Positions 5,331-62,944 of a stretch of DNA of 64,000 bases are shown one piece after another. The translations under genes were made by a program, and so were the position numbers. This DNA is from an uncultured Pseudomonadota bacterium (GTDB taxonomy: Bacteria > Myxococcota_A > Polyangia > Fen-1088). Under the pieces are notes generated by a model that saw nothing but the letters and a program-made list of their open reading frames with translations, did not search any database and was not told the DNA's origin. Location: positions 32,001 to 96,000 of the forward strand of contig CAWKBC010000034.1 of NCBI GenBank assembly GCA_963847705.1, in the 5' to 3' direction. How positions within the stretch are numbered: position 1 is the stretch's first letter; each line of letters begins with the position of its first letter.

Positions 5331-5894
5331 CTAGAGCCGCACCTGGATCTCGTAGCGGCGGTTCTTGGCCTTCTTGGCGGGCGTGTTGTCGGGCGTCACC
5401 AGCGGGTGCTCGGAGCCCATGCCGACGGAGATGATCTCCTTGGGGGACACGCCGCGCGCCACCAGCTCGCGCTCGATCACCGCCGCGCGCTTGGCCGACA
5501 GCTCCTTGTTGTGCTCCGGCTTGCCGGCCGAGTCGGTGTGCCCCGACACCTCGAACTTGAAGCCGCTCACGCCCGCCGCCTGGAGCTTCTTCTTGGCGTC
5601 GATCAGCGTGTCGGCGAGCTTCTTGATCTTCTTGTCGCATCCGGGCGCCAGCTGGTCGCTGTCGCTCTTGAAGCTGCACTGATTCTTGCGCCCTTCGGCC
5701 AGCAGCTTGGCGTTGACCTCCTTGACCGCCTTGTCGCGGGCCGCGCCGCCAGCCTTGCCGGCCAGGCTGTGGAAGTCGAGCGCGAAAGCCGGCGAGCTGA
5801 AGGGGCCGGTGAGCAGAAGCGCGGCTCCCACGATTCCCAGCGTCAAGGCGAGCCACGACCCACGGCGATCTGTCAGGAACGTTGAACGTGTCAT
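5331..5894 (-). CDS. OmpA-family peptidoglycan-binding domain protein
   Basis: Signal peptide; GHTDSAG..HNKELSAKRA..V and KNRR OmpA_C motifs. Confidence 0.85.
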   Translation of the reverse strand: MTRSTFLTDRRGSWLALTLGIVGAALLLTGPFSSPAFALDFHSLAGKAGGAARDKAVKEVNAKLLAEGRKNQCSFKSDSDQLAPGCDKKIKKLADTLIDAKKKLQAAGVSGFKFEVSGHTDSAGKPEHNKELSAKRAAVIERELVARGVSPKEIISVGMGSEHPLVTPDNTPAKKAKNRRYEIQVRL

Positions 5895-5920
5895 CCCGAC
5901 ACAATAACGCGAACCGCGCC

Positions 5921-6937
5921 CTACCGGCGCAGCGTCAGATCGAGGACCGTCGCCAGCCCGGGCGCCGCCAAGATGACGGCCGGGATGGCGTTGAGCACGG
6001 TGCCGACGGTGGCGCGGTCCCCGTGGGTGCCGCCGCGAATAAGGAGATCGAGCGGCGGGTCGCCCTCGATCACCACGCGATCGTGCGGCTCGGGCGCGCC
6101 GACCGACATCTCCAGCTCGAGCCGGACCAGCTCGCGTCCGCCGTGAAGGCCGATCGCCGACTGCCGCAGCCCGGCCACCTGTCCGGGCTCGATCCCCGGC
6201 CGCACGTCGGTGACCGGACCGATCGTCGAGCGGATCTCGTCGAACGAGAGCCCCAGGCCGAGCCCGAGGAGCGCGCACGACTCGGCCAGCCCCCGATGCC
6301 CGAGCTTCTTGGCCGCGACGCCCGCTTCGAACTCCCCGACGGTCATTCCGGCGCCGACCTTGGCGCGCAGCGGAGCGCGACGCTTGGCGGCGTCGACCAC
6401 CCGGGTGACCGCCACCCGGTCGACGCGCACGCAGGCCGCGGCCAGCGTGAGCGGCAGGCGATCCATCACCAGGCCGGGGTTGACGCCGGTCCCGACGACG
6501 GTGATCCCGGCGGCGCGCGCGTGCGCGTCCAGCTGCTGCGCGAGCTCGGGCGTGGTCAGGTTGGCGTAGGCGAGATCCTCGCAGGTCGAAACCACGTCGA
6601 CGCCCGCGGCGCCCGCCGCCTCGACGATCGGCAGCATCTCGGCGACGCCGGAGAGGGTCAACACCAGCGCGACGTCGGCGCCGGCCAGCGCCGCCGACAG
6701 CGTCGGCGCCACCTTCACGCCGAGCGGACCGACCCCGGCCACCTCGCCAGCGTCCTGGCCGACGAAGGCCGGATCGGCGACACCGGAGAGCTCGAGCGTC
6801 GATCGGGCAAGAACCGCCTTCAGGACCTCGCGGCCGATCGCCCCCAGCCCGACGATCGCCACGCGCACGGCGCCGGCCACCCGGACGCTGCCCGTCGTGC
6901 GGGTGGTGCTGGGCGAACCGATGTTGCCGGCGCTCAC
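5921..6937 (-). CDS. Dihydrodipicolinate reductase-like / 2,4-diaminopentanoate dehydrogenase-family oxidoreductase
   Basis: GLGAIG Rossmann motif, VSTCEDL, GTGVNPG, GGTHGDRAT. GTG start overlaps the upstream stop. Confidence 0.8.
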   Translation of the reverse strand: MSAGNIGSPSTTRTTGSVRVAGAVRVAIVGLGAIGREVLKAVLARSTLELSGVADPAFVGQDAGEVAGVGPLGVKVAPTLSAALAGADVALVLTLSGVAEMLPIVEAAGAAGVDVVSTCEDLAYANLTTPELAQQLDAHARAAGITVVGTGVNPGLVMDRLPLTLAAACVRVDRVAVTRVVDAAKRRAPLRAKVGAGMTVGEFEAGVAAKKLGHRGLAESCALLGLGLGLSFDEIRSTIGPVTDVRPGIEPGQVAGLRQSAIGLHGGRELVRLELEMSVGAPEPHDRVVIEGDPPLDLLIRGGTHGDRATVGTVLNAIPAVILAAPGLATVLDLTLRR

Positions 6938-49356: not shown

Positions 49357-50619
49357 CTACCGGCTGACTGACTGCTGCCATGAGACGACCTCGCCGTCGC
49401 GGTTGGCGACGAAGGAGACACCGCCGTCGTGGGAGATCACGATGGCCAGCCCCCGCGGGTGCTGGCGGACGAAGCGGTAGGCGGCCCGGTGGCGGGTGCC
49501 GACGTCCTCGACGGCGTTGACCTCGCGCCGCTGCCCTTCCGGGTCCAGCGCGCGCCAGATCTGCGGCGGCGCCGGGATCTCGCTCGACACCTCGGCCCCG
49601 AAGCCGAGCAGCGCGAACCCTTTGTCCAGGACCACCGCGCCGTCGATGGCGGCCAGGCCGGCGATCACCCGGCTCATCTCGAAGATCGACTGCTCCAGCT
49701 TGTCGAGATCCATGCTGGTGTCGCCCGCGAAGTCGGACCAGTCGACCGAGGCGTTCGTCGTCCCCGCCGCCAGACGATCGAGCATCTGCAGGAGCAGCGT
49801 TCGATAGCGGCGCGACGGTTCGTTCTGATCGAAGCGGTACTTGAGGTTCAGCCCTTGCAGCCCCGCGAAGGGCGCGCCCGGGAGCACGTCGGCGACCAGG
49901 ATCAGACCGCCATGGCGGGCGCCCAGGACCAGCTGGATCGCGCGCCGGAGCAGGTCCTGCCCGACGCGACCAACCAGCGACGGCTCGGCCGCCGTCGGAA
50001 CCGGCGCCTGGGCCTGCAGCGCGGCGTGCTCGCGGCGCACCTCCTCGCGCTCGTGGTCGAACATCGCCGGCAACCACTCGGAGTCGAACACGTCCATGAG
50101 CGCGTCGACCATCGCCCCCTGCTCGAGCCCGCCGATGAGCTTGCCGGCGCAGCGCACCGCGATGTGCCCCGGGCCGGTCACGTGAACGATCGGATCGAAC
50201 GTCCAGTTCGGCACCAGGACGCGACCGCCCCAGGTCGGCGCCAGCCAGGCCGGCCCCGAGTGCGCCAGCCCCCAGATGCGCAGCTTCCCTTCGAACGGAT
50301 AGACGCCGATCAGCGTCGTCTCGAACGGCGCCGACGGGCTGAGCTGGCGAAGCTCGTCGGCCGTCGCGGCGCGCGTGCGATCGAAGGCCAGGCGAAGGAC
50401 ACCCTGGTTCGGCGCGCCGCTGACGGGGAGCGCGTCGGGCGACATGATCAGCAAACGAAACCGCGTGGGCCGCGTCTCCTCGGCGGTCATCGAGGCGTGA
50501 AAGGCGATCGAGAGGGCCTCGCAGAGGAGATCGTGGGAGATGGTGAGCGTCCGACCCTCTGGCCAGTGCTCCCGGACGTAGCGCGCGAGGTCGGGGGGGT
50601 ATCGATATCCCGGCGTCAT
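49357..50619 (-). CDS. Sensor-domain (DACNV-like) diadenylate cyclase-domain protein
   Basis: C-terminal DisA_N motifs IDGAVVL, GTRHRAA and ISHDG. Confidence 0.75.
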   Translation of the reverse strand: MTPGYRYPPDLARYVREHWPEGRTLTISHDLLCEALSIAFHASMTAEETRPTRFRLLIMSPDALPVSGAPNQGVLRLAFDRTRAATADELRQLSPSAPFETTLIGVYPFEGKLRIWGLAHSGPAWLAPTWGGRVLVPNWTFDPIVHVTGPGHIAVRCAGKLIGGLEQGAMVDALMDVFDSEWLPAMFDHEREEVRREHAALQAQAPVPTAAEPSLVGRVGQDLLRRAIQLVLGARHGGLILVADVLPGAPFAGLQGLNLKYRFDQNEPSRRYRTLLLQMLDRLAAGTTNASVDWSDFAGDTSMDLDKLEQSIFEMSRVIAGLAAIDGAVVLDKGFALLGFGAEVSSEIPAPPQIWRALDPEGQRREVNAVEDVGTRHRAAYRFVRQHPRGLAIVISHDGGVSFVANRDGEVVSWQQSVSR

Positions 50620-52169: not shown

Positions 52170-53651
52170 TCAGACCTTCAATTGGATCTGGGTGACGAAG
52201 ACGGTGGCGCTCTGGGTGAACACCCCTGGCGGTGTCGTGTTGGGAGGGAGACCGGAGCTGAGCTGATCGCGCGTGAGGTCGAGCAGCAGGCGCACGTGCG
52301 CGGTGAAGTCGAGGTTGAGCGCGCCGGACAGGAGGTAGCGCTGCCCCCCCGACTGCTGGCGATCGGCGTCCAGCCATTCGAAGCGCACCGTGGGCATGGC
52401 CAGGACGTGGGCGACGGGGAACCGCACCGCGACGATCCCCCAGGCGGCCATGAACGTGCGGGCGTCACCCCGATAGGAGATGTCGGTGCGATCTCCCCAC
52501 AACCACTCCCCGCGCAGCTCGAGGAGCTCGTTGGAGTAGGTCGCGTCGGCGCTGGTGGCCCTGCCCGACGACACCTGGCTCTGCGGCGGAAGATCGACCG
52601 CCGGGGTGCCGTTGGGGCGCCAGGCGACGTCGGCGCCGAGCGAGAGGTGCTTGAGCGGCCGCGACATCAGCCGCGCGGTCAGCAGCAGCGACGGCGCCGC
52701 CAGGTCGGGGCCGGTGTTCGCGTTGCCGGTGGTCCCGGGCAACCCCTCGGCGCCCTCGCCGGCGCCGCCGAACGCGCCCAGATAGACGTGCAACCAGCGC
52801 CGCTTGGGGAGCGGGTTGACGCGCACCATCGCGCCGGCGTCGCGGCCGCCGAACTGCGTGTCCTTGATCAGATTGTCGGTGGGACCGGTGTCGGCCAGCT
52901 CGTACTCGGCGATGGGGAGCAGCTCCAGCAGCGAGTAGGTCCGCTTGAACAGGCCGAAGGTGAGCTCGAAGCGCTTGATCGGCTTGATCTCGCCGTAGGC
53001 CAGCTTCAAGGCCTGCTGCGGGTTCGAATAGGCGAACTCGGCGAAGTCGACCAGCAGCTTGGCCGAGAGCCACCTGTAGGGGTGCACCACGGCCCGCAGG
53101 AAGGCCCGGTTCAGCGCGAACCCGTCGTTGGTCTCGGCGTCCGTGACGCTGGCGTCGTCGAAGACGCGCGTGTACCGGGTCTGCAGCAGCAACCGAAAGG
53201 CGAAGCCCTTCGTCTTGGGGCCGTTCTCCGGCTCGTCGCCGAACGCGTCCCCCTTGGCGTTCGGCCGGGGCGCCAGCTCCTGGTATTCCTCTTCCTCTTC
53301 GTCCGCAGCGGCAGCGTGCTTCTTCTTGCTCTCTTTCGAGATCGCCTTGGCGCTCTCGGTGCTGCTCTCCTCGGTGCTCTCTTCGGGGGCCTCGATCACC
53401 GTGGGCGCCAGTGCCGGTGTCGCCGCAGGCGGGGAAACAGGCGGGACGGGAGGCGGGACAGGCTCCGTCGGCGGTGGGCCCGCGTCGGGCTCCGAGGCCA
53501 CGCCTCCGTCTGGCGCAGACGGCTGCAACGGAGGTGCTCCGAGGTCGGCGTCGGGGGGCGCGCTCGAATCGGCGTCGTCTCGCGCCAGCGCCGGCCCGCC
53601 GAACGCCACCATGGAAGTGAGCAGGAACACAACCTGAAGCAAGAGGCGCAC
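52170..53651 (-). CDS. Porin (OprO/OprP-like beta-barrel)
   Basis: Signal peptide, acidic/Pro-rich linker, LQTRY, F.LNRA.L, GRDAG, C-terminal TQIQLKV. Confidence 0.7.
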   Translation of the reverse strand: MRLLLQVVFLLTSMVAFGGPALARDDADSSAPPDADLGAPPLQPSAPDGGVASEPDAGPPPTEPVPPPVPPVSPPAATPALAPTVIEAPEESTEESSTESAKAISKESKKKHAAAADEEEEEYQELAPRPNAKGDAFGDEPENGPKTKGFAFRLLLQTRYTRVFDDASVTDAETNDGFALNRAFLRAVVHPYRWLSAKLLVDFAEFAYSNPQQALKLAYGEIKPIKRFELTFGLFKRTYSLLELLPIAEYELADTGPTDNLIKDTQFGGRDAGAMVRVNPLPKRRWLHVYLGAFGGAGEGAEGLPGTTGNANTGPDLAAPSLLLTARLMSRPLKHLSLGADVAWRPNGTPAVDLPPQSQVSSGRATSADATYSNELLELRGEWLWGDRTDISYRGDARTFMAAWGIVAVRFPVAHVLAMPTVRFEWLDADRQQSGGQRYLLSGALNLDFTAHVRLLLDLTRDQLSSGLPPNTTPPGVFTQSATVFVTQIQLKV

Positions 53652-53706: not shown

Positions 53707-55164
53707 TCAGAATCGAACCAAGAACTGCGCGGGCACCAGCAGGCCGGTCTGCCCGGAGCTGTAGACATAGAGCGCGCTGGTGTAGGGGCAGTTCTTGATC
53801 CCGATCGCCTCGACGCTGAGCCAGACCTGCCGGGTGGCAAAAGGGTACCAGTGGGCGCCGACCGCACCCTCGACGGCGGTGGCGAACGGACCTGCCACCA
53901 AGGAGCTCCGGAGGTACGGCTCCAATCTCTTTGGAAGGGCGAAGTATCCCAGCGAGGCGTCGAAGCCCCAGTCGAACATGCTGGTGATCGGCAGCGGCCC
54001 GTCGGCCTCGAAGTTGTCCAGCCAACGAAACGCGAACTCGGCGTTGAGCGCGAAGCCCCGATATTTGAGACCGGCGTCGACGGCGTAGAGGTAGTAGCTG
54101 GCCAGCGAGACGGTGACGTTGGGCGCCAGCGTGCCCGTTCCGAACAGCAGGGTGCCGTCCGATATGTACGTCGAGTTGTTCTCCGGGTTGGCCTCCGACA
54201 GATCGGAGAGGCGATCCTCGCGCGCGTAGGTGAAGGCGGTGCCGAGGCGCAAGGAGGGCGACTGGTGGTGCTCGTAGTCGTTCCAGGCCTTGCCGAAGCT
54301 GTTGATGTCGTACCAGAGCGAGACGGCGTAGGCGAACCGGTAGTCGATCCGCGAGGCGGCGATGTTGAGCGTGTTGAGCGAGTTGCCGATCATCGCGATG
54401 TAGTTGAGGCCGGGAAGCGGCTCGCCGGTGGCCCAGACGCCCTGGGTAAATCCGGGACGAAAGTAGTTCACCTCCATGCTGCGATCGGTGCCTGCAAAAT
54501 AGGGGTAGGTGCCGGTCATGGCGCGCAGGCTGGGCAACGAAAAGAAACCCGCCTGGAGCGCGAAGGCCTTGTGGAACCGATACCCGACAAACCCGGCCGC
54601 CGCGGCCGTCAGGTCAGCCGACGAGGTGTAGAGGATGATGTTGTACTCGAGCCGTTTGTCGAAGACGTAGCCCGAGAAGTAGAAGACGTCGCGCGTGAGC
54701 TGAAAGTCGTTGCGCTTGTTGACGTCCTTCACCTCGCCGAGGTGGGTGACGTAGGTCGGGTGCACCGCCAGCGTGTTGGTGTACTTGAACTGGGACACGT
54801 GATTGAGCTTCAGCAGATAGGGCAGCGGCGCCGAGTCCGGGCTGGAGACCAAGACGAACCCTTCGTCGTAGTGCGGTGGCTGCCAGATCCCGACCGGCTT
54901 GTTGACGTCGGCAGGCTTCTGCTCTGACGGCGCCGGCGAAGGCGCGGCCGGCAGTGCCTGCGTGGAGATGCCGGACGTCGTGGGCGAGGCGGGCGCCGCG
55001 GGCAACGGACTCGCCACCGGCGCGACGGGTCCATCCGCTGGCGCGCCAGCATCGGACGTCGCCGCCGGAGGGCTCGTCGGCCTACCTGCGTCGAGATCCC
55101 CCGGCGCTCCCGCTTGCGCCACCATCGCCGAGAGCAGCAGCGCGGCCCCCAACGCCGCGGTCAC
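53707..55164 (-). CDS. Putative outer-membrane porin-like protein
   Basis: Signal peptide, aromatic-rich beta strands, C-terminal Phe. GTG start overlaps the patatin stop (GTGA). Confidence 0.65.
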   Translation of the reverse strand: MTAALGAALLLSAMVAQAGAPGDLDAGRPTSPPAATSDAGAPADGPVAPVASPLPAAPASPTTSGISTQALPAAPSPAPSEQKPADVNKPVGIWQPPHYDEGFVLVSSPDSAPLPYLLKLNHVSQFKYTNTLAVHPTYVTHLGEVKDVNKRNDFQLTRDVFYFSGYVFDKRLEYNIILYTSSADLTAAAAGFVGYRFHKAFALQAGFFSLPSLRAMTGTYPYFAGTDRSMEVNYFRPGFTQGVWATGEPLPGLNYIAMIGNSLNTLNIAASRIDYRFAYAVSLWYDINSFGKAWNDYEHHQSPSLRLGTAFTYAREDRLSDLSEANPENNSTYISDGTLLFGTGTLAPNVTVSLASYYLYAVDAGLKYRGFALNAEFAFRWLDNFEADGPLPITSMFDWGFDASLGYFALPKRLEPYLRSSLVAGPFATAVEGAVGAHWYPFATRQVWLSVEAIGIKNCPYTSALYVYSSGQTGLLVPAQFLVRF

Positions 55165-56363
55165 GACGGCCGTCCCGAGCCGATCTGCGCGCCGTCGTCG
55201 GCCACCTCGTCCGCGAACGGTTGATCGAGCGGGAGCCCGACGCCGTCCATCTCCGCGAGGAAGGCGGTGGCCCGGGCCTCTCCGTCGGCGATCAACCGGT
55301 CGATGTGCGCGGGGAGGCGCGACATCTTGCTCGGGTAGTCCAGCGTCTCCTGCAGCTCCTGCGACATGCGGATGAAGCGCACGGTGATCCGCTCCGTCGT
55401 GTCGAGCCCGAAGCTGGTGCGGAAGCCAGGCGTGAGCGCGCCTTCTTTCAGCAGCATGTTCACCATGTCGATCACCTCCAGCTCGTGCTGGAGGCTCAGG
55501 TTTCCGGCCAGATCGTTGCGGCGATCGGAGATCTCGCTCGGTGCCTCGGGGACCCCCTGCCGCTTCGTGCGATTGACCTGAATGACCCAGATCTCGTCGG
55601 GGATCTTCCCCTTCCCCATCAGCGCCGCCCGCAAGAAGGAGATCACGGGTGGGTTCGAGGCGAAGATGCCGTCCCAGTAGGCGTGCCCTCCGATCTGCAC
55701 CGCCGGAAACAGGTTCGGGATCGCGGCCGAGGCGAGCACGGCCTCGACGGAGATCTCGCTCAGCGCGGAGCTGAAGATCTTGAAGCTCCCTTCGAGAATG
55801 TCCCCCGCCCCGAGCAGCAGCGTCGGGCTCTCCGAATCGACGAGCCCGGGGAGCGCCTGGAAGTCGATGTGCTTGGCCAGCAACGCGCGCAAATCTGTAA
55901 ACTCCTGACGACCGATCAGCAGCGAGGTTGCCCCCGCCCACAGCTGGAACTGCAGCGACGAGGGGCTCCTGGCGATGGTCGGCAAGAGCCCATGCTCGGC
56001 CAGCCGGACCATCTGGGTGCAGACCCCGTCGAGGAGGACCTCGCGCGGCGTCTGCGCCGACAGATCCTTCCAGCAGGCGATGATCCGATCTTCGATGGGC
56101 GTCCGATCGCCGCGCGCCCGCAGCAGAAGTCCCACCCAGGCCAGGGCCGCCGTGAGGGCGCCGCCCGAGGTTCCGCTCAGCCCGACGATCTTGAATCGAT
56201 CCTGAACTCCCCGCCCGAACAGGGTCTTGAGCGCGCCGGCGACGAAGGCGCACTGACTCCCCCCGCCCTGACAAGCGATGGCGATACGTTTGTTTCCCAC
56301 AGGTCTCCTCTGTAAGCCGTCGGATGGACCGTTCCCTTGTGGGGTCGCCACCCGCTCTGTCAA
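55161..56363 (-). CDS. Patatin-like phospholipase (candidate PHA depolymerase, PhaZh1-like)
   Basis: IACQGGG, GTSGG nucleophile, SAAIP, YWDG; divergent from the pha genes. Confidence 0.85.
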   Translation of the reverse strand: MTERVATPQGNGPSDGLQRRPVGNKRIAIACQGGGSQCAFVAGALKTLFGRGVQDRFKIVGLSGTSGGALTAALAWVGLLLRARGDRTPIEDRIIACWKDLSAQTPREVLLDGVCTQMVRLAEHGLLPTIARSPSSLQFQLWAGATSLLIGRQEFTDLRALLAKHIDFQALPGLVDSESPTLLLGAGDILEGSFKIFSSALSEISVEAVLASAAIPNLFPAVQIGGHAYWDGIFASNPPVISFLRAALMGKGKIPDEIWVIQVNRTKRQGVPEAPSEISDRRNDLAGNLSLQHELEVIDMVNMLLKEGALTPGFRTSFGLDTTERITVRFIRMSQELQETLDYPSKMSRLPAHIDRLIADGEARATAFLAEMDGVGLPLDQPFADEVADDGAQIGSGRPS

Positions 56364-56509: not shown

Positions 56510-56929
56510 ATGAGTGACCAAATGTTCGACACGTTTCGCAAGGCGTCCGAGTCCTGGGTGAAGATGCAGCAGGACCTGTTTCAAACCGGCGCGCCGGCGT
56601 CGTTTTTCACTCCGCCCCAGGGGGCGGGCGTCGCGCCCGAATGGGCCCGCAACGCCCAGAAGAAATGCATCGATCTGGCGGCGGAGATCCTGGAACGGCA
56701 GCGTGAGTCGGTCGACGCGCTGTTCAAGTCGTCGATCAACCTGCTGCAGCAGACATCGCAGATCTCCGAAGCGAAGTCGTCGGAGGACTATCGCCGCGCG
56801 GCGGAGGATCTCTGGCGCAAGTGGTTCGAGAGCGTCAAGAGCCACTCTGAGACCCAGTTCCGGGACGTTCAGACGTTCGCGGGGAAGTCGCTGGAGATCG
56901 TTCAAAGCGCGCAGAATGCGCAGGCCTGA
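56510..56929 (+). CDS. Phasin-like helical protein 1
   Basis: AGGAGG RBS; amphipathic helical 139 aa; pha context; paralog of the next ORF. Confidence 0.6.
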   Translation: MSDQMFDTFRKASESWVKMQQDLFQTGAPASFFTPPQGAGVAPEWARNAQKKCIDLAAEILERQRESVDALFKSSINLLQQTSQISEAKSSEDYRRAAEDLWRKWFESVKSHSETQFRDVQTFAGKSLEIVQSAQNAQA

Positions 56930-57102: not shown

Positions 57103-57513
57103 ATGGACGACCAACTTTTCGACAGCTTCCGCAAAGCTTCGGAGTCCTCGCTGCACATGCAGCAGGAGATCCTGAAGCACTGGACCGAGCGCTGGGCCGC
57201 CGGCGCTCTCCAGACCCCGAACGCCTCCAGCGAGGCGAGTCAACGCGCTCAGAAACGCTGGCTGGCGCTGGGGATCGAGCTGCTCAACAAGCACCGGGCG
57301 GCGCTCGATGGAACGTACGCCGCCGGCATCCAGCTCATCGAGCGCTCCTTTGCCGCGGCGGAGGCCAGATCGCCCGAGGAGTACCGGCGCCTGACCGAGG
57401 AGCTCTGGCGCAAGTTGTTCGACACCTACAAGAGCCAGGCCGAAGCGCAGTTCGACGCCTTCAAGAACTGGTCCACCAAGTCGGCCGAAGCCGTTCAAGA
57501 TGCCCGAACGTAG
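57103..57513 (+). CDS. Phasin-like helical protein 2
   Basis: GGAGAGG RBS; shares DQ.FD.FRKASES...MQQ and S.E.YRR..E.LWRK.F with ORF 56510. Confidence 0.6.
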   Translation: MDDQLFDSFRKASESSLHMQQEILKHWTERWAAGALQTPNASSEASQRAQKRWLALGIELLNKHRAALDGTYAAGIQLIERSFAAAEARSPEEYRRLTEELWRKLFDTYKSQAEAQFDAFKNWSTKSAEAVQDART

Positions 57514-57760
57514 CCACCCCGCTGCCTACGTCGAACAGTGGTTCGACTCGTGGCGCAACGCCAGCGCACTCGGGTGGGACTACCTGGAGACGCTGTGCGG
57601 CCTTCGCCCGCCGCAACGCCTGCGAAACCGCCTGCTCGCGGAGGCCAGGCAGACGGCGGCCGAGTACCTGAGGTCCCCCGCCTTCCTCGAATTGATGCGC
57701 GTGAACTTGAGCGCAATGACCATTTCCAGCCGTTTGATCCAGCCATTCCGAATCCACTAG
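57500..57760 (+). CDS. Small protein, possible minimal PhaE/PhaR-subunit-like
   Basis: 86 aa filling the gap before phaB; EYLRSPAFLELM resembles a segment of short PhaE-type subunits (from memory). Confidence 0.45.
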   Translation: MPERSHPAAYVEQWFDSWRNASALGWDYLETLCGLRPPQRLRNRLLAEARQTAAEYLRSPAFLELMRVNLSAMTISSRLIQPFRIH

Positions 57761-57770
57761 GAGTCTTTCC

Positions 57771-58562
57771 ATGACCGTCGCGTTTCGAGAAGCCGCATCG
57801 AACCTGCTTCCGATCTTCAGTGTGTTGGGGAAGAAGGCCTTCGTCACCGGGGGCTCGCGCGGCATAGGCCGGGCCTGCGCCCTGACCCTGGCCGCCGCCG
57901 GCGCCGACGTGGCCATCGGCTCGAGCGCCGCCGGCGTCGAGTCGGCCGAGGCGGTCTGCCGCGAGATCCGCGAGCTGGGACGGCGCGCCGACGCCTACCC
58001 CTGCGACGTGGGGACCCGCGGCGCGGTGAAGACGATGTGCGCCCGCGTGACCGAGGAGTTCGAGACCATCGACATCCTGGTGAACAACGCCGGCGTCACC
58101 AGAGATGGCCTCTTTCGCAAGATGGACCGCGAGGCCTGGGACACGGTGATCAACACCAACCTCAACAGCGTCTTCGAGATCACGCAAAACTTCATCGAGC
58201 CGATGGCCGCGCGCGGATGGGGGCGGGTCATCAACATCTCCAGCATCGTCGGCCAGATCGGCAACTTCGGTCAGGCCAACTACGCCGCCGCCAAGGCCGG
58301 GCTCATCGGGCTGACCAAGACGCTGGCCCGCGAGTACGCCCGCAAGGGCGTCACCGTGAACGCCATCGCGCCCGGCTTCGTCAAGACGCGCATGCTCGAC
58401 GGCGTCCCCGACAAGGCGCTGCAGTCGGTCCTCGACATCACGCCGGTGGGGCGGCTGGGGGAGCCGATGGAGATCGGGGCCAGCGTCCTCTACCTCGCTT
58501 CGCCGTCGGCCAGCTTCGTCACCGGTCACGTGCTGGACGTCAACGGCGGCATGGCGATGTAG
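57771..58562 (+). CDS. phaB: Acetoacetyl-CoA reductase (PhaB/FabG-type)
   Basis: TGGSRGIG, NNAGVTRD, GNFGQANYAAAK, NGGMAM; adjacent to phaC. Confidence 0.85.
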   Translation: MTVAFREAASNLLPIFSVLGKKAFVTGGSRGIGRACALTLAAAGADVAIGSSAAGVESAEAVCREIRELGRRADAYPCDVGTRGAVKTMCARVTEEFETIDILVNNAGVTRDGLFRKMDREAWDTVINTNLNSVFEITQNFIEPMAARGWGRVINISSIVGQIGNFGQANYAAAKAGLIGLTKTLAREYARKGVTVNAIAPGFVKTRMLDGVPDKALQSVLDITPVGRLGEPMEIGASVLYLASPSASFVTGHVLDVNGGMAM

Positions 58563-58616
58563 CGACGGAACCATCGGGACGCACTCGGGCGAGGGGAAAG
58601 CCAGCTGGCGACGACG

Positions 58617-59771
58617 ATGGCGACGACGACGGCGACGACAGAGCCGACGGCGAAGGACGACCAGGGTCCGCCTCCGCTGTTCGCCGAACAGCGGAAGATG
58701 TGGAGTCGGCTGTGGAGCGTTCCCAGCGTCTTCCGGCAGGCGCGCGAGACGCGGGTCGGCACCTCCGCCGCGGAGGTGGTGCTCAGGGAGGGGACGCACA
58801 AGCTGCTCCACTACCGGCGGGAGACGCCGGCCAGCTACGCCGAGCCGGTGCTGTTCTGTTACGCGCTGGTCAACCGCCCTTACATCCTCGACCTGCAGCC
58901 GGACAAGAGCGTCGTTCAGCAGTACTTGAAGCAGGGCTTCGAGGTCTACCTGATCGACTGGGGCGTCCCCACCGACGCCGACCGCGGCCTCGGCCTCGAG
59001 CACTACGTCTGCGGATTTCTCCAGCGCGCGGTCGAGTGGATCCGCGAGCGCCAGGCGAGCGAGCGCCTGCATCTGCTCGGCTACTGCATGGGCGGGACGA
59101 TGGCCGCGCTCTTGACGGCGCTGCGCCCCGAGCTGGTCCGGTCGCTCACCTTGCTGGCGGCCCCCATCGACTTCGTGGGGCAGGAGGCGCTTCTCAATCT
59201 CTGGACCGACCGGAGCCACTTCGACGTCGACGCCCTGGTCGACGCCTACGGCAACTGCCCCGCCTGGTTTCTCCAGGCCTGCTTTCTCTTCATGAACCCC
59301 ATCGCCAACCTGATCGAAAAGAACCTCTCGTTCTACGAGCAGATGGACGATCCGCGCAGCATGACCAACCACTTCGCGCTCGAGAGCTGGGTCAACGACG
59401 GCATCCCCGTGGCCGGCGCGGCCTTTCGCGAGTTCGTCAAGAGCCTCTACCAGCGCAACCTGCTGGTGAAAGGCGAGCTGTCGCTGGGCGGCCGGCGGGT
59501 CGATCTCGCCCGCATCACCTGCCCGCTGCTGCTCTTGACCGCCAAGAACGATCACCTGGTCAACCCGGCGTCGACGGAAGGAATTCGCCCCCACGTCGGG
59601 ACGTCCGACATCGAATCGATGGAGATCGGCGCTGGCCACGTCGGCCTGGTGGTCAGCAGCCGTGCACACAAATCCTTCTGGCCTGCGGCGACGCGCTGGC
59701 TGGGCGACCGCTCGACACCGCTGCGCGGCGGCCGCGAACGCCACACGAACGCCAGCCAGACGAACACTTAG
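58617..59771 (+). CDS. phaC: Class III polyhydroxyalkanoate synthase subunit PhaC
   Basis: YALVNRPYILDLQP..S, DWG, lipase box GYCMGG, catalytic D (NDHLV) and H (GHVG); ~380 aa. Confidence 0.93.
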   Translation: MATTTATTEPTAKDDQGPPPLFAEQRKMWSRLWSVPSVFRQARETRVGTSAAEVVLREGTHKLLHYRRETPASYAEPVLFCYALVNRPYILDLQPDKSVVQQYLKQGFEVYLIDWGVPTDADRGLGLEHYVCGFLQRAVEWIRERQASERLHLLGYCMGGTMAALLTALRPELVRSLTLLAAPIDFVGQEALLNLWTDRSHFDVDALVDAYGNCPAWFLQACFLFMNPIANLIEKNLSFYEQMDDPRSMTNHFALESWVNDGIPVAGAAFREFVKSLYQRNLLVKGELSLGGRRVDLARITCPLLLLTAKNDHLVNPASTEGIRPHVGTSDIESMEIGAGHVGLVVSSRAHKSFWPAATRWLGDRSTPLRGGRERHTNASQTNT

Positions 59772-59782
59772 GAGCATCAGCC

Positions 59783-60772
59783 ATGAGCATTCGGATTTCG
59801 GGCATCGGGGGGTACGTGCCAAGCAAGACGGTGACGAACCACGAGCTGGCGATGCGCATCGACACCTCGCACGAGTGGATCGCCGCCAAGACCGGGATCG
59901 TCGAGCGCCGGGTCTCGGACGAAAAGGAGGCGCCCAGCGACATGGGGTGTGAGGCGGCCCGGCGCTGCCTGGCCCACGCCGGAGTCGAGAAGTCGGAGGT
60001 CGACCTCATCGTGGTCGCCTGCGCCACCCCCGACCAGTCTCAGCCCGCCGTCGCCTGCATGGTCCAGGAGAAGCTGGGCGTGGCCGACCGCCAGTGTCCC
60101 GCGTTCGACGTGAACTCCGTCTGCGCCGGCTTCGTCTTTTCCCTCAACGTCGCGCAGAGCATGATGCTGACGGCGCCCACCAAGTATCGCCACGCGCTGG
60201 TGATCGGCACCGACGCCTTCTCCAAGATCATGAACTGGCACGATCGGCGGACCTGCGTCTTCTTCGGCGACGGCGCCGGGGCGGTGCTGCTGTCGCAGTC
60301 CGACGCGGGGCACGCCCGCATCCGGTTCCACCTGGGGAGCGACGGGCGCGGCAGCCGCCACATCGAGGTGCCGGGCGGCGGCACCCGGATGCCGATCAGC
60401 CCGGAGGTGCTGGAGAAGCGCCTCAACACCTTCGTCATGAACGGCCCCAAGGTCTGGGACTTCGCCGTCGACACAGTCCCGCGCGTCGTTCGTTCACTGC
60501 TGGCCGAGCACGACCTGACGCCCTCCGATCTCGACCTCATCGTCCTGCACCAGAGCAACCTCCGCATGCTGGAGGCGATCATGCGCTCGCTGGAGATCCC
60601 CATGGACCGGACGGTCACCACCGTCGAGACCTACGGCAACACCGCGGCGGCCAGCATCCCGTTGACGCTGCAGAAGGCTTCCCAGGCCGGGAAGCTGGTG
60701 CCGGGGTCGAAGGTCATGCTGTGCGGGTTCGGCGGCGGTCTCTCCTGGGGCGCGGCGCTGCTCGACTGGTGA
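59783..60772 (+). CDS. KAS III family condensing enzyme (FabH/NphT7-like; candidate acetoacetyl-CoA synthase)
   Basis: Catalytic C-H-N triad in VCAG, HQSN and YGNT; FGDGAGA; GFGGGLSWG. Confidence 0.9.
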   Translation: MSIRISGIGGYVPSKTVTNHELAMRIDTSHEWIAAKTGIVERRVSDEKEAPSDMGCEAARRCLAHAGVEKSEVDLIVVACATPDQSQPAVACMVQEKLGVADRQCPAFDVNSVCAGFVFSLNVAQSMMLTAPTKYRHALVIGTDAFSKIMNWHDRRTCVFFGDGAGAVLLSQSDAGHARIRFHLGSDGRGSRHIEVPGGGTRMPISPEVLEKRLNTFVMNGPKVWDFAVDTVPRVVRSLLAEHDLTPSDLDLIVLHQSNLRMLEAIMRSLEIPMDRTVTTVETYGNTAAASIPLTLQKASQAGKLVPGSKVMLCGFGGGLSWGAALLDW

Positions 60773-60783
60773 AGGAGGCCACC

Positions 60784-61542
60784 GTGCACAGCGTTCTCAT
60801 CACGGGCGCCGGCAGCGGGATCGGCGCCGGGCTGGCCACGGAGCTGGCCCGTGCCGGCCACCACCTCCTGGTGAGCGACCTCAACCTCGATGGCGCCGAA
60901 GCGGTGGCCGGTCGCATCCGCGCCGCCGGCGGTTCGGCCCAGGCGGTGCCGCTCGACGTGACCTCCGAGAAGAACGTCACCAGCGCGGTGGCCTCGTTTG
61001 CGCGGCCGGTCGACGTCCTCATCAACAACGCCGGCCTGCAGTTCGTCGCCCCGCTGGAAGAGTTTCCGCTCCCCCAGTGGGAGCACCTGATCCACGTCAT
61101 GTTGACCGGGGCCGTGGCGCTCACCCGCGCCGTGCTGCCGGGGATGCGCGCGCGCGGCTTCGGTCGCATCATCAACATGGGGAGCATTCACGCTCTGGTG
61201 GCCAGCCCCTTCAAGAGCGCCTACGTCGCCGCCAAGCACGCGCTGGTCGGGTTCTCCAAGGTCATCGCGCTCGAGACCGCCAACACGGACATCACGGTCA
61301 ACACGCTCTGTCCGAGCTACGTCAAGACGCCCCTGGTCGACAAGCAGATCGCCGATCAGGCGCGCATCCGGGGGATGCCGGAGTCGGAGGTGATCTCGCA
61401 GATCATGCTCAAACCGATGCCGAAGGGGGTCTTCATCGGCATCGACGAGCTGGCCGGCGCCACCAGCTTTCTCGTCTCACCGGCCGCGCGGAACATCACC
61501 GGACAGACGATTGTCATCGACGGAGGTTGGACCGTTCAATGA
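60784..61542 (+). CDS. bdhA: D-3-hydroxybutyrate dehydrogenase
   Basis: NNAGLQFVAP.EEFP, SIH.LVASPFKSAYVAAKH, CPSYVKTPLV..QI. Confidence 0.92.
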   Translation: MHSVLITGAGSGIGAGLATELARAGHHLLVSDLNLDGAEAVAGRIRAAGGSAQAVPLDVTSEKNVTSAVASFARPVDVLINNAGLQFVAPLEEFPLPQWEHLIHVMLTGAVALTRAVLPGMRARGFGRIINMGSIHALVASPFKSAYVAAKHALVGFSKVIALETANTDITVNTLCPSYVKTPLVDKQIADQARIRGMPESEVISQIMLKPMPKGVFIGIDELAGATSFLVSPAARNITGQTIVIDGGWTVQ

Positions 61543-61693: not shown

Positions 61694-62944
61694 GTGCTGT
61701 ACCGACTCCACGAGTACAACCGCGCGCTGTTTGCGCCCGCGGTCGAGCTGGCTGAGGCCGGCGCCCGAATGTTCTCAGAACCAGGAAGCTGGCTGGCGCG
61801 GCTCCCCGGGGCCAGCAACGTCGCTGCCGGCTACGAGCTGCTCTACCGGCTCGGCAAGAGCTACGAAAAGCCAGCCTTCGGCATTCACGAGGTCACCGTG
61901 GGCGGCGCCCGGGTGGCGGTCATGGAGCAGACGGCGCTGGCGAAGCCGTTCTGCCGCCTCATCCGCTTCAAGCGCTACAGCGATCAGGGCGACGTCGTGG
62001 CCGAGCTCAAACGGGATCCGGCGGTCCTGGTGGTGGCCCCGCTCTCGGGTCACCACTCCACGCTCCTCCGCGACACCGTCCGCACCCTCCTCGTCGACCA
62101 CAAGGTCTACGTCACCGACTGGATCGACGCGCGTGACATCCCGGCCGACCGTGGCCCGTTCACGCTCGACGACTACGTCGGCTATATCCGCGAGTTCATC
62201 CGCCACATCGGCGCCGATCGCCTGCACGTGCTGGCGGTCTGTCAGCCGGCGGTGCCGGTGCTGGCGGCCACGGCCCTGATGGCAGCGGCCGACGAACCCC
62301 AGCCGCGCAGCCTCATCATGATGGGCGGGTCGATCGACGCCCGCCGCAGCCCCACGCGGGTCAACGAATTCGCCACCGGCCACCCGATGAGCTGGTTCGA
62401 GAGCAACCTCATTCACAAGGTGCCGGATCCCTATCCGGGGCGTGGCCGCCGGGTCTATCCGGGCTTCCTGCAGCACGCGGGCTTCATGGCGATGAACCCG
62501 GTGCGCCACATCGGCTCGCACTGGGACTTCTACCAGCACCTGATCGAGGGGGACCTCGCCAGCGCCGAGGAGCATCGCCGTTTCTACGACGAGTACAACG
62601 CCGTGCTCGACATGCCGGCCGAGTACTACCTGGACTGCATCCGCATCGTCTTCCAGCAGCATCTGCTGCCGCGCGGGCTCTGGCACGTCTCCGGCGAGCG
62701 GGTGGCGCCCGAGGCGATCACGCGCTCCTCGCTCCTGACCATCGAAGGGGAGCTGGACGACATCTCGGGCATCGGTCAGACGCGGGCGGCGCACGATCTC
62801 TGCGTCGGTATTCCCCCGGAGCGCAAGCACCACCTGACCGTCATGGGGGCCGGTCACTACGGTATCTTCAGCGGACGGCGCTGGCGCGAGACCATCTATC
62901 CTCAGGTGCGCGACTTCATCGCGACGGCCGACTTGGCGGTCTGA
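61694..62944 (+). CDS. phaZ: Intracellular PHB depolymerase
   Basis: VAPLSGHHSTLLR, VCQP, GRRVYPGFLQ, EYNAVLDM, EGELDDISG.GQT, GHYGIFSG. Confidence 0.95.
   Translation: MLYRLHEYNRALFAPAVELAEAGARMFSEPGSWLARLPGASNVAAGYELLYRLGKSYEKPAFGIHEVTVGGARVAVMEQTALAKPFCRLIRFKRYSDQGDVVAELKRDPAVLVVAPLSGHHSTLLRDTVRTLLVDHKVYVTDWIDARDIPADRGPFTLDDYVGYIREFIRHIGADRLHVLAVCQPAVPVLAATALMAAADEPQPRSLIMMGGSIDARRSPTRVNEFATGHPMSWFESNLIHKVPDPYPGRGRRVYPGFLQHAGFMAMNPVRHIGSHWDFYQHLIEGDLASAEEHRRFYDEYNAVLDMPAEYYLDCIRIVFQQHLLPRGLWHVSGERVAPEAITRSSLLTIEGELDDISGIGQTRAAHDLCVGIPPERKHHLTVMGAGHYGIFSGRRWRETIYPQVRDFIATADLAV

Follow-up and report, generated by a model that had tools for sequence, protein, structure and literature searches.

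A KAS III family conserved in polyhydroxybutyrate gene clusters of soil Polyangia, a likely source of acetoacetyl-CoA

In textbook accounts, the synthesis of polyhydroxybutyrate (PHB) begins with a reversible thiolase, and a route driven by malonyl-CoA is, to our knowledge, known only from engineered strains. A gene cluster for polyhydroxyalkanoates (PHA) in an uncultured member of the Polyangia raises the question of whether such a route also exists in nature. The cluster lies in the window analysed here, a stretch of 64,000 nucleotides from contig CAWKBC010000034.1, and holds a gene for a β-ketoacyl synthase III (KAS III) between the PHA synthase gene phaC and the 3-hydroxybutyrate dehydrogenase gene bdhA. 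This KAS III represents a new family that is a real part of a conserved PHB module. Its function is likely that of a CoA-dependent acetoacetyl-CoA synthase feeding the neighbouring reductase PhaB, with an activity like that of NphT7, a reading to which we give a probability of roughly 0.55. NphT7 itself condenses acetyl-CoA with malonyl-CoA, does not carry out thiolysis and has no KAS III activity on acyl carrier protein (ACP) (PMC5509993; PMC5432608). The four genes at the centre of the locus are as follows.

57771..58562, + strand: PhaB-type acetoacetyl-CoA reductase of the short-chain dehydrogenase/reductase type (YxxxK, TGGSRGIG; TIGR01829 281.8 bits against a cut-off of 302.1, and TIGR01830 291.2 bits, also under its cut-off)
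58617..59771, + strand: class III/IV-type PHA synthase PhaC (GYCMGG box; C157/D312/H341 invariant in the alignment; TIGR01836 345.7 bits, E 2.7e-103, under the cut-off of 365.3)
59783..60772, + strand: KAS III of the PHA-cluster-specific family (triad C114/H256/N286; TIGR00747 332.1 bits, above 292.1)
60784..61542, + strand: 3-hydroxybutyrate dehydrogenase BdhA (TIGR01963 348.7 bits, above 307.05)

All four are co-oriented within a larger PHA cluster, with 11-nt gaps flanking the KAS III gene and a 54-nt gap separating phaB from phaC. A previous sequence-only reading had given these positions, the shared orientation, the 11-nt gaps and four KAS III motifs (WIAAKTGI, TPDQSQP, FDVNSVCAG and VPGGGTR), and all were confirmed, the motifs at residues 32, 82, 108 and 196. 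Its four-gene operon was right as to the genes and too short as to the extent, since two phasin-like open reading frames (ORFs), an 86-aa ORF, phaZ and a divergent patatin gene flank them. The PhaB assignment is made from genomic context, a separate fabG being located in the fab operon of the genome, and PhaC is the sole phaC match in the host genome. The KAS gene has a GC content at third codon positions of 0.94, like its neighbours, and is preceded by a GGAG ribosome site. As the sequence-only reading also held, the locus is free of thiolase and ACP genes: searches of the contig detected no thiolase save a weak Thiolase_N match to the KAS gene itself and no ACP, both ACP-domain matches of the genome being elsewhere.

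The association of this KAS III with PHA genes is conserved in other genomes; its lack there would have spoken against the sequence-only reading. The family is tight, with 67-98% identity within it and next relatives at no more than 47%; the best 120 homologs of the cluster KAS III share 72-94% identity with it. When the library was clustered at 50%, the family appeared as one full-length cluster (75%), the next full-length protein reaching at most 47%. Among 43 genome loci returned, 19 hold members of the family; five come from Acidobacteriota and the others from Polyangia or soil genomes without a classification. PHA-cluster neighbours were found in all 19, and a thiolase match in none of the 21 loci examined. 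A pool of 63 loci was then compiled from these 19, 41 metagenome loci and three more, some of them duplicates and many on short contigs, and its neighbours were counted under stricter identity limits. A PHA-cluster neighbour is present in 61 of the 63, phaB or phaC in 45 and a thiolase in none. Of the two loci without a PHA neighbour, one is a contig of 1.3 kb and the other has only a short upstream stretch. Recurrence in 61 of 63 loci means that the linkage is not due to chance. Neither ACP nor fabD was found in any family locus examined.

A similar pattern was seen in 37 genomes of the host family, all related and hence not independent samples, and some of them incomplete. Full KAS and orthologous phaC genes stand on one contig within ~1.1 kb in 18 of them, and in one more phaC is followed by the start of KAS at a contig end. 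KAS without phaC occurs once (on a 3.4-kb contig), phaC without KAS never, and 17 genomes have neither. Elsewhere the family was found in only one (G530) of 400 other genomes sampled from the host phylum and in none of 300 others sampled from the acidobacterial class, where not found does not equal absent. The KAS III of G490 was considered as a further member and set aside, being only 41% identical and grouping with FabH. Among 401 Bacteroidota genomes with eight class III phaC loci, a phaC-phaB-thiolase arrangement occurs in three of the eight and a KAS III within 1.5 kb in none. A KAS III beside a phaC-like gene in G515 (L209:7257-11060) was rejected as a second recruitment, since it is of a different type and without the triad His and Asn; in that locus genes for an acyl-CoA ligase, a phaC-like and a KAS III-like protein form one run adjoining a PhaR-type regulator, and in several other Polyangia loci two phaC-like genes flank an acyl-CoA ligase. 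In addition, the entire cluster occurs a second time (L038), with many frameshifts, in the genome holding locus L006; this copy represents pseudogenes or long-read errors.

The host genome (6.1 Mb, 84.7% complete, 6% contamination) has its own housekeeping fabH, 39.6% identical to the cluster KAS III, in a yceD-plsX-fabH-fabD-fabG-acpP-fabF operon elsewhere. The cluster enzyme is thus not the only FabH of the genome, in agreement with the sequence-only reading, and forcing its family together with the host-type FabH group was rejected (p-AU, approximately unbiased test, 0.0099; the FabH group was picked after seeing the tree). A distant KAS III-like gene (25%) is also present. Three thiolases are encoded, one with hydroxyacyl-CoA dehydrogenase, crotonase and acyl-CoA dehydrogenase genes, one with a FadJ-like gene and one alone, and the genome further encodes AccA and CoA-transferases. 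A second phaZ (72%) on contig C21 (L054:6330-7505) has a frame break near codon 380, possibly an assembly error.

Phylogenetic analysis placed the family apart from both of its better known relatives. The tree (60 rows, LG+C20, unrooted) was derived from a first tree of 95 rows by removing rows nearly identical to others and several that were distant or of unusual composition. NphT7 was represented by seven syntenic orthologs rather than by the sequence from Streptomyces sp. CL190 itself: four are plasmid genes directly after hydroxymethylglutaryl-CoA (HMG-CoA) synthase in annotated mevalonate clusters, and three stand beside HMG-CoA synthase matches. FabH-like rows were labelled mostly by similarity, a fab or plsX context being seen for three. 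The family forms its own clade (100/100) on a long stem and is sister (95/78) to a 16-row, mostly actinomycete group of specialised KAS III (99/91), inside which the NphT7 orthologs are nested; both together are split from the FabH-like rows at 95/84. Identity of the cluster KAS III is 39-43% to the NphT7 orthologs and 37-46% to FabH, that is, no higher to NphT7. As for the phylogeny proposed to settle the matter, the family is indeed outside the housekeeping FabH clade, and it is outside the NphT7 clade as well. Three actinomycete KAS III genes (L025, L121 and L124) adjoin aminotransferase and acyl-CoA dehydrogenase genes, and L025, which branches in the sister group, carries the GPKVWDFA motif of the family.

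Residues were compared across 139 family members, the seven NphT7 orthologs and 14 FabH-like sequences. The Cys-His-Asn triad C114/H256/N286 is intact in 139/139. Eighteen conserved positions are common to the family and the NphT7 orthologs against FabH, and nine to the family and FabH against the orthologs. The NphT7-like features of the family include Q87 (138/139, and 7/7 orthologs; mostly F in FabH), N111, V113, I194-x-V-P-(A/G)-G-G-(T/S)-R, M262 and mostly K36 (106/139). The stretch VP(A/G)GG(S/T)R was found in 128/139 members, 7/7 orthologs and 0/14 FabH. Among the motifs that the sequence-only reading had given for NphT7, K36, Q87, N-x-V-C and (A/G)GGSR occur in 7/7 orthologs, whereas KTGI does not hold (KTAI or KTEI). 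The AGGSR motif has been suggested to recognise CoA (PMC5432608).

The family also appears to have lost most of the basic patch on which ACP docks in FabH, with R249 retained. F213 is replaced by W and K214 by D or E in 138/139 members each, and K257 mostly by S or A. The net charge over K214, R249, K256 and K257, the last two of which presumably take part in ACP docking, averages +0.35 in the family, -0.43 in the NphT7 orthologs and +3.43 in FabH. R36, F213, R249 and the equivalent of K214 have been placed near the ACP site, with basic residues at 210/211 in an Acinetobacter KAS III (PMC8036411). Taken together, the surface evidence leans toward the use of CoA without settling CoA versus ACP. 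The model of the KAS III built from an alignment (predicted local distance difference test, pLDDT, 97.2, against 48.5 for the single-sequence fold) best matches FabH structures (Foldseek, template modelling (TM) score 0.93), and no NphT7 entry is among the PDB matches listed; such a match confirms the fold only, since Foldseek does not distinguish the extender.

On these grounds, the acetyl group of acetyl-CoA would be loaded on Cys114, malonyl-CoA rather than malonyl-ACP would be decarboxylated with the aid of His256 and Asn286, and acetoacetyl-CoA would be released. The neighbouring PhaB would then reduce it to (R)-3-hydroxybutyryl-CoA for PhaC. For a decarboxylating KAS encoded beside PhaB and PhaC, with no ACP genes nearby, the simplest role is to make the β-ketoacyl-CoA used by PhaB, and the combination NphT7, PhaB and PhaC has yielded PHB in engineered Pseudomonas putida (PMC11539682). 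The presumed benefit is an ATP-paid, irreversible entry step, which would draw carbon into PHB when the acetyl-CoA/CoA ratio is too low for thiolase. Since the cell keeps thiolases, the KAS III would be a dedicated entry route and not the sole possible one.

Several observations weigh against this reading. An exclusive clade of the family and the NphT7 orthologs was rejected (p-AU 0.0014), and the branch joining the family to the actinomycete group lacks strong backing (Shimodaira-Hasegawa-like approximate likelihood ratio test, SH-aLRT, 78). With both forced groupings rejected, the enzyme is neither NphT7 nor host FabH but a cousin of the NphT7-containing group. The loop of the query reads GGGTR, strict (A/G)GGSR occurring in only 2/139 members; two homologs that carry AGGSR brought no significant improvement in yeast (PMC5432608), so the motif is no guarantee of activity. 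The equivalent of Arg249 (R261, in HQSNLR) is kept in 139/139 members, while V stands in its place in 7/7 NphT7 orthologs (HQANGV), a difference that the sequence-only reading did not notice. We take Arg249, in Escherichia coli numbering, to be the ACP-binding arginine that NphT7 is missing. NphT7 is described as presumably without KAS III activity since that arginine is missing (PMC5432608), and its presence here weighs against the reading. Likewise, E211 has become K or R in 137/139 members, a position that binds ACP in the Acinetobacter enzyme (PMC8036411), and the net charge across both whole helices is +1 in the query, equal to that of the host FabH. The label NphT7-like of the sequence-only reading accordingly holds in a loose sense, and not for the clade, the arginine or overall identity.

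The gene neighbourhoods also provide contrary evidence. Thiolases are retained, with two to four matches in 25/25 genus genomes searched. In other Polyangia phaC loci (6.5-20 kb) a thiolase was found in 0/11, so its absence from a locus says little in this class; the phrase that the KAS III stands where PhaA would be is correct in that the locus has no thiolase, and is undercut by these 11 loci and by the three thiolases of the genome. Genes for bdh, phaZ or patatin stand beside KAS in 54/63 loci, at least as often as phaB or phaC (45/63). A second intact family KAS III (72%) on contig C20 of the host (L049:6340-8949) belongs to a phasin-like/patatin/KAS unit without phaB or phaC, and second family copies also occur in genomes G708, G710, G726 and G728. 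In three Acidobacteriaceae loci (L014, L015 and L017, ~5500-5970) the linked phaC was lost by deletions with differing ends, with KAS, phaB, patatin and phaZ left intact; a further class III phaC is encoded elsewhere in two of these genomes, and the third lacks a full phaC match. Such loci could serve the production of free 3-hydroxybutyrate or use another synthase.

The alternative that survives best, although rather unlikely, is an ACP-dependent bridge. The KAS III would condense acetyl-CoA with malonyl-ACP like FabH, and/or take over 3-ketoacyl or 3-hydroxyacyl groups from ACP and pass them on to CoA; PHB would still be malonyl-driven and thiolase-free but would need AcpP and FabD from the fab operon. 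This is what the invariant Arg249, R151 (139/139), the new K/R at 211 and FabH as top structural match would suggest, and FabH has been named as a link from ACP to CoA in the supply of PHA monomers (PMC8231600), while overexpression of fabH raised PHA in E. coli (PMC11539682). Against this, no family locus examined offers an ACP or fabD, K214 is charge-reversed and K256/K257 are mostly lost, and in the tree FabH is further from the enzyme than the group holding NphT7 is.

An improbable second alternative is a broader choice of primers. Propionyl-CoA or longer acyl-CoA would be condensed with malonyl-CoA to give 3-hydroxyvalerate or longer units, with C4 units coming from a thiolase encoded elsewhere, and thiolases are indeed present in the genomes. 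F87 limits E. coli FabH to acetyl-CoA (PMC12625853), and this residue is Q in nearly the whole family; however, the NphT7 orthologs share the same Q, and residue 87 was found to be a poor predictor of chain length (PMC12664062). The NphT7-holding group includes KAS III genes beside those for crotonyl-CoA carboxylase/reductase and hydroxyacyl-CoA dehydrogenase, but in the pocket of the family L142 is replaced by bulky F and L191 by V, and G306 is kept.

Still less probable is that the enzyme, together with PhaZ, patatin and BdhA, serves PHB turnover or a cycle of 3-hydroxybutyrate and acetoacetate instead of making polymer, for instance as an acyl-CoA transacylase. The frequency of bdh, phaZ or patatin in the loci, the persistence of KAS after three different phaC deletions, including the genome without a full phaC match, and the phasin-patatin-KAS units would fit such a role. 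Nevertheless, the invariant triad is that of decarboxylative condensation, CoA-transferases and thiolases for the use of acetoacetate are encoded elsewhere, a different class III phaC is available in two of the three deletion genomes, and a full cluster is retained in the genomes with second copies. Lastly, the chance presence in the cluster of an ordinary FabH paralog that serves membrane fatty acid synthesis is highly improbable: generic FabH models are passed and identity to some FabH is 44-46%, but a housekeeping fabH exists elsewhere, 61/63 loci are linked, and KAS is missing from the 17 related genomes without a phaC ortholog.

The remaining genes of the cluster are as follows.

55161..56363, - strand: patatin-like hydrolase, divergent (GTSGG lipase box; PF01734 E 8.5e-16)
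56510..56929, + strand: phasin-like ORF 1, 139 aa (37.5% to ORF 2 by tblastn; putative phasin)
57103..57513, + strand: phasin-like ORF 2, 136 aa (Phasin_2 E 7e-4, weak and below cut-off)
57500..57760, + strand: conserved 86-aa ORF overlapping phasin-like ORF 2 (motif Y-M/L-R-S-P-A-F-L-E-L-M)
61694..62944, + strand: intracellular PHB depolymerase PhaZ (TIGR01849 584 bits, above the cut-off of 300.75)

The patatin, present in 31/63 family loci, is likely a granule PHB depolymerase or esterase by its likeness to haloarchaeal PhaZh1 (PhaZh1/bdhA, PMC7137286). A homolog of phasin-like ORF 2 occurs in 37/63 loci, and phasin-like ORF 1 gave no match in family scans of the window proteins. A promoter and terminator scan yielded nothing above chance (0 versus 0.3 and 7 versus 4.8). 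In five soil RNA runs only 5-7% of words were present; in two out of four such runs, contigs of relatives matched parts of the KAS gene, but two runs resemble one data set and the comparison had no silent control, which gives no basis for a claim of expression. Upstream, one of the ORFs at 49357-50619 (-), 52170-53651 (-) and 53707-55250 (-) has a DisA/diadenylate-cyclase-like look, judging from DGAVVLD and VGTRHRAA, which we take to be motifs of that group; the other two are porin-like.

The 86-aa ORF, conserved in 31/63 family loci (a 17-row alignment was made), is a weak candidate for a miniature PhaE/PhaR-type partner of PhaC. PhaE (PF09712) was not found in the 84.7% complete host genome, a search in which the control matched in only 3/14 genomes and none over the cut-off; it is present at two other Polyangia phaC loci. 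The ORF matched no Pfam family, and an atlas search returned only unnamed clusters (at most 0.90). One of these two PhaE shows, in its C-terminal part, a weak alignment to the R-S-P-x-F motif of the ORF (E 0.011, probability 3.9%), and the second gave no match. In structure prediction, the complex of PhaC with the 86-aa ORF scored 0.51 versus 0.00 for the best control, with at least 63% of contacts shared between runs and a partner pLDDT of at least 61. This mark was reached by 116/157 solved complexes and 2/215 mismatches, scores of 0.60 or lower comprising only 18 solved ones and both mismatches, and the score may possibly reflect likeness to PhaC-PhaE structures.

Put together, the following history has about an even chance of being right. 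A native PHB module free of thiolase and based on a new acetoacetyl-CoA synthase family would have arisen in soil Polyangia and been transferred from them to some Acidobacteria. The recruitment of this family to PHB would be independent of the recruitment of NphT7 to mevalonate synthesis, the switch to malonyl-CoA would have occurred with Arg249 kept, and the PHA synthase may use an 86-residue partner for PhaE. If this is true, nature employs an irreversible malonyl-CoA entry for carbon storage, a design built by engineers with NphT7, and more than 100 new candidate acetoacetyl-CoA synthases become available; the efficiency of NphT7 has been reported as limiting in yeast (PMC5432608). As the family keeps Arg249, it would also directly test which residues decide between CoA and ACP in KAS III enzymes.

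PHA genes in Myxococcota have been noted before (PMC11821767), and a literature search, which did not include most subscription journals, retrieved no account of a PHA cluster with a native KAS III gene. With NphT7 of the CL190 mevalonate cluster, the family shares the KAS III fold, the triad, K36, PDxxQP with Q87, FDVNxVC, VP(A/G)GG(S/T)R and an apparently weak ACP patch, and both adjoin enzymes that consume acetoacetyl-CoA, away from ACP genes. It differs in Arg249 (HQSNLR versus HQANGV), in GPKVW(D/E) versus GRGVR and in GGTR rather than GGSR; furthermore, it is a separate long-stem clade at 39-43% identity, in a PHA cluster and not as the last gene of a mevalonate cluster. Housekeeping FabH has the same fold (TM 0.93), triad, R151, R249 and G306, whereas the family shows F87Q, F213W, K214D/E and K257S/A, no ACP or fab neighbours, and a patchy presence tied to phaC. 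The canonical PhaA-PhaB-PhaC pathway, with class III PhaC-PhaE (Allochromatium, Synechocystis) or class IV PhaC-PhaR (Bacillus), has in common with this cluster PhaB, a small PhaC with a GxCxGG box, phasin-like genes, PhaZ and BdhA; here, a KAS III is found and no thiolase in the cluster, and an 86-aa ORF with no PhaE match in the genome. The engineered NphT7-PhaB-PhaC pathways of P. putida (PMC11539682) and Synechocystis (PMC5509993) follow the same three-step logic as the function proposed here, whereas the module of the Polyangia is native, conserved across two phyla and built on another enzyme family.

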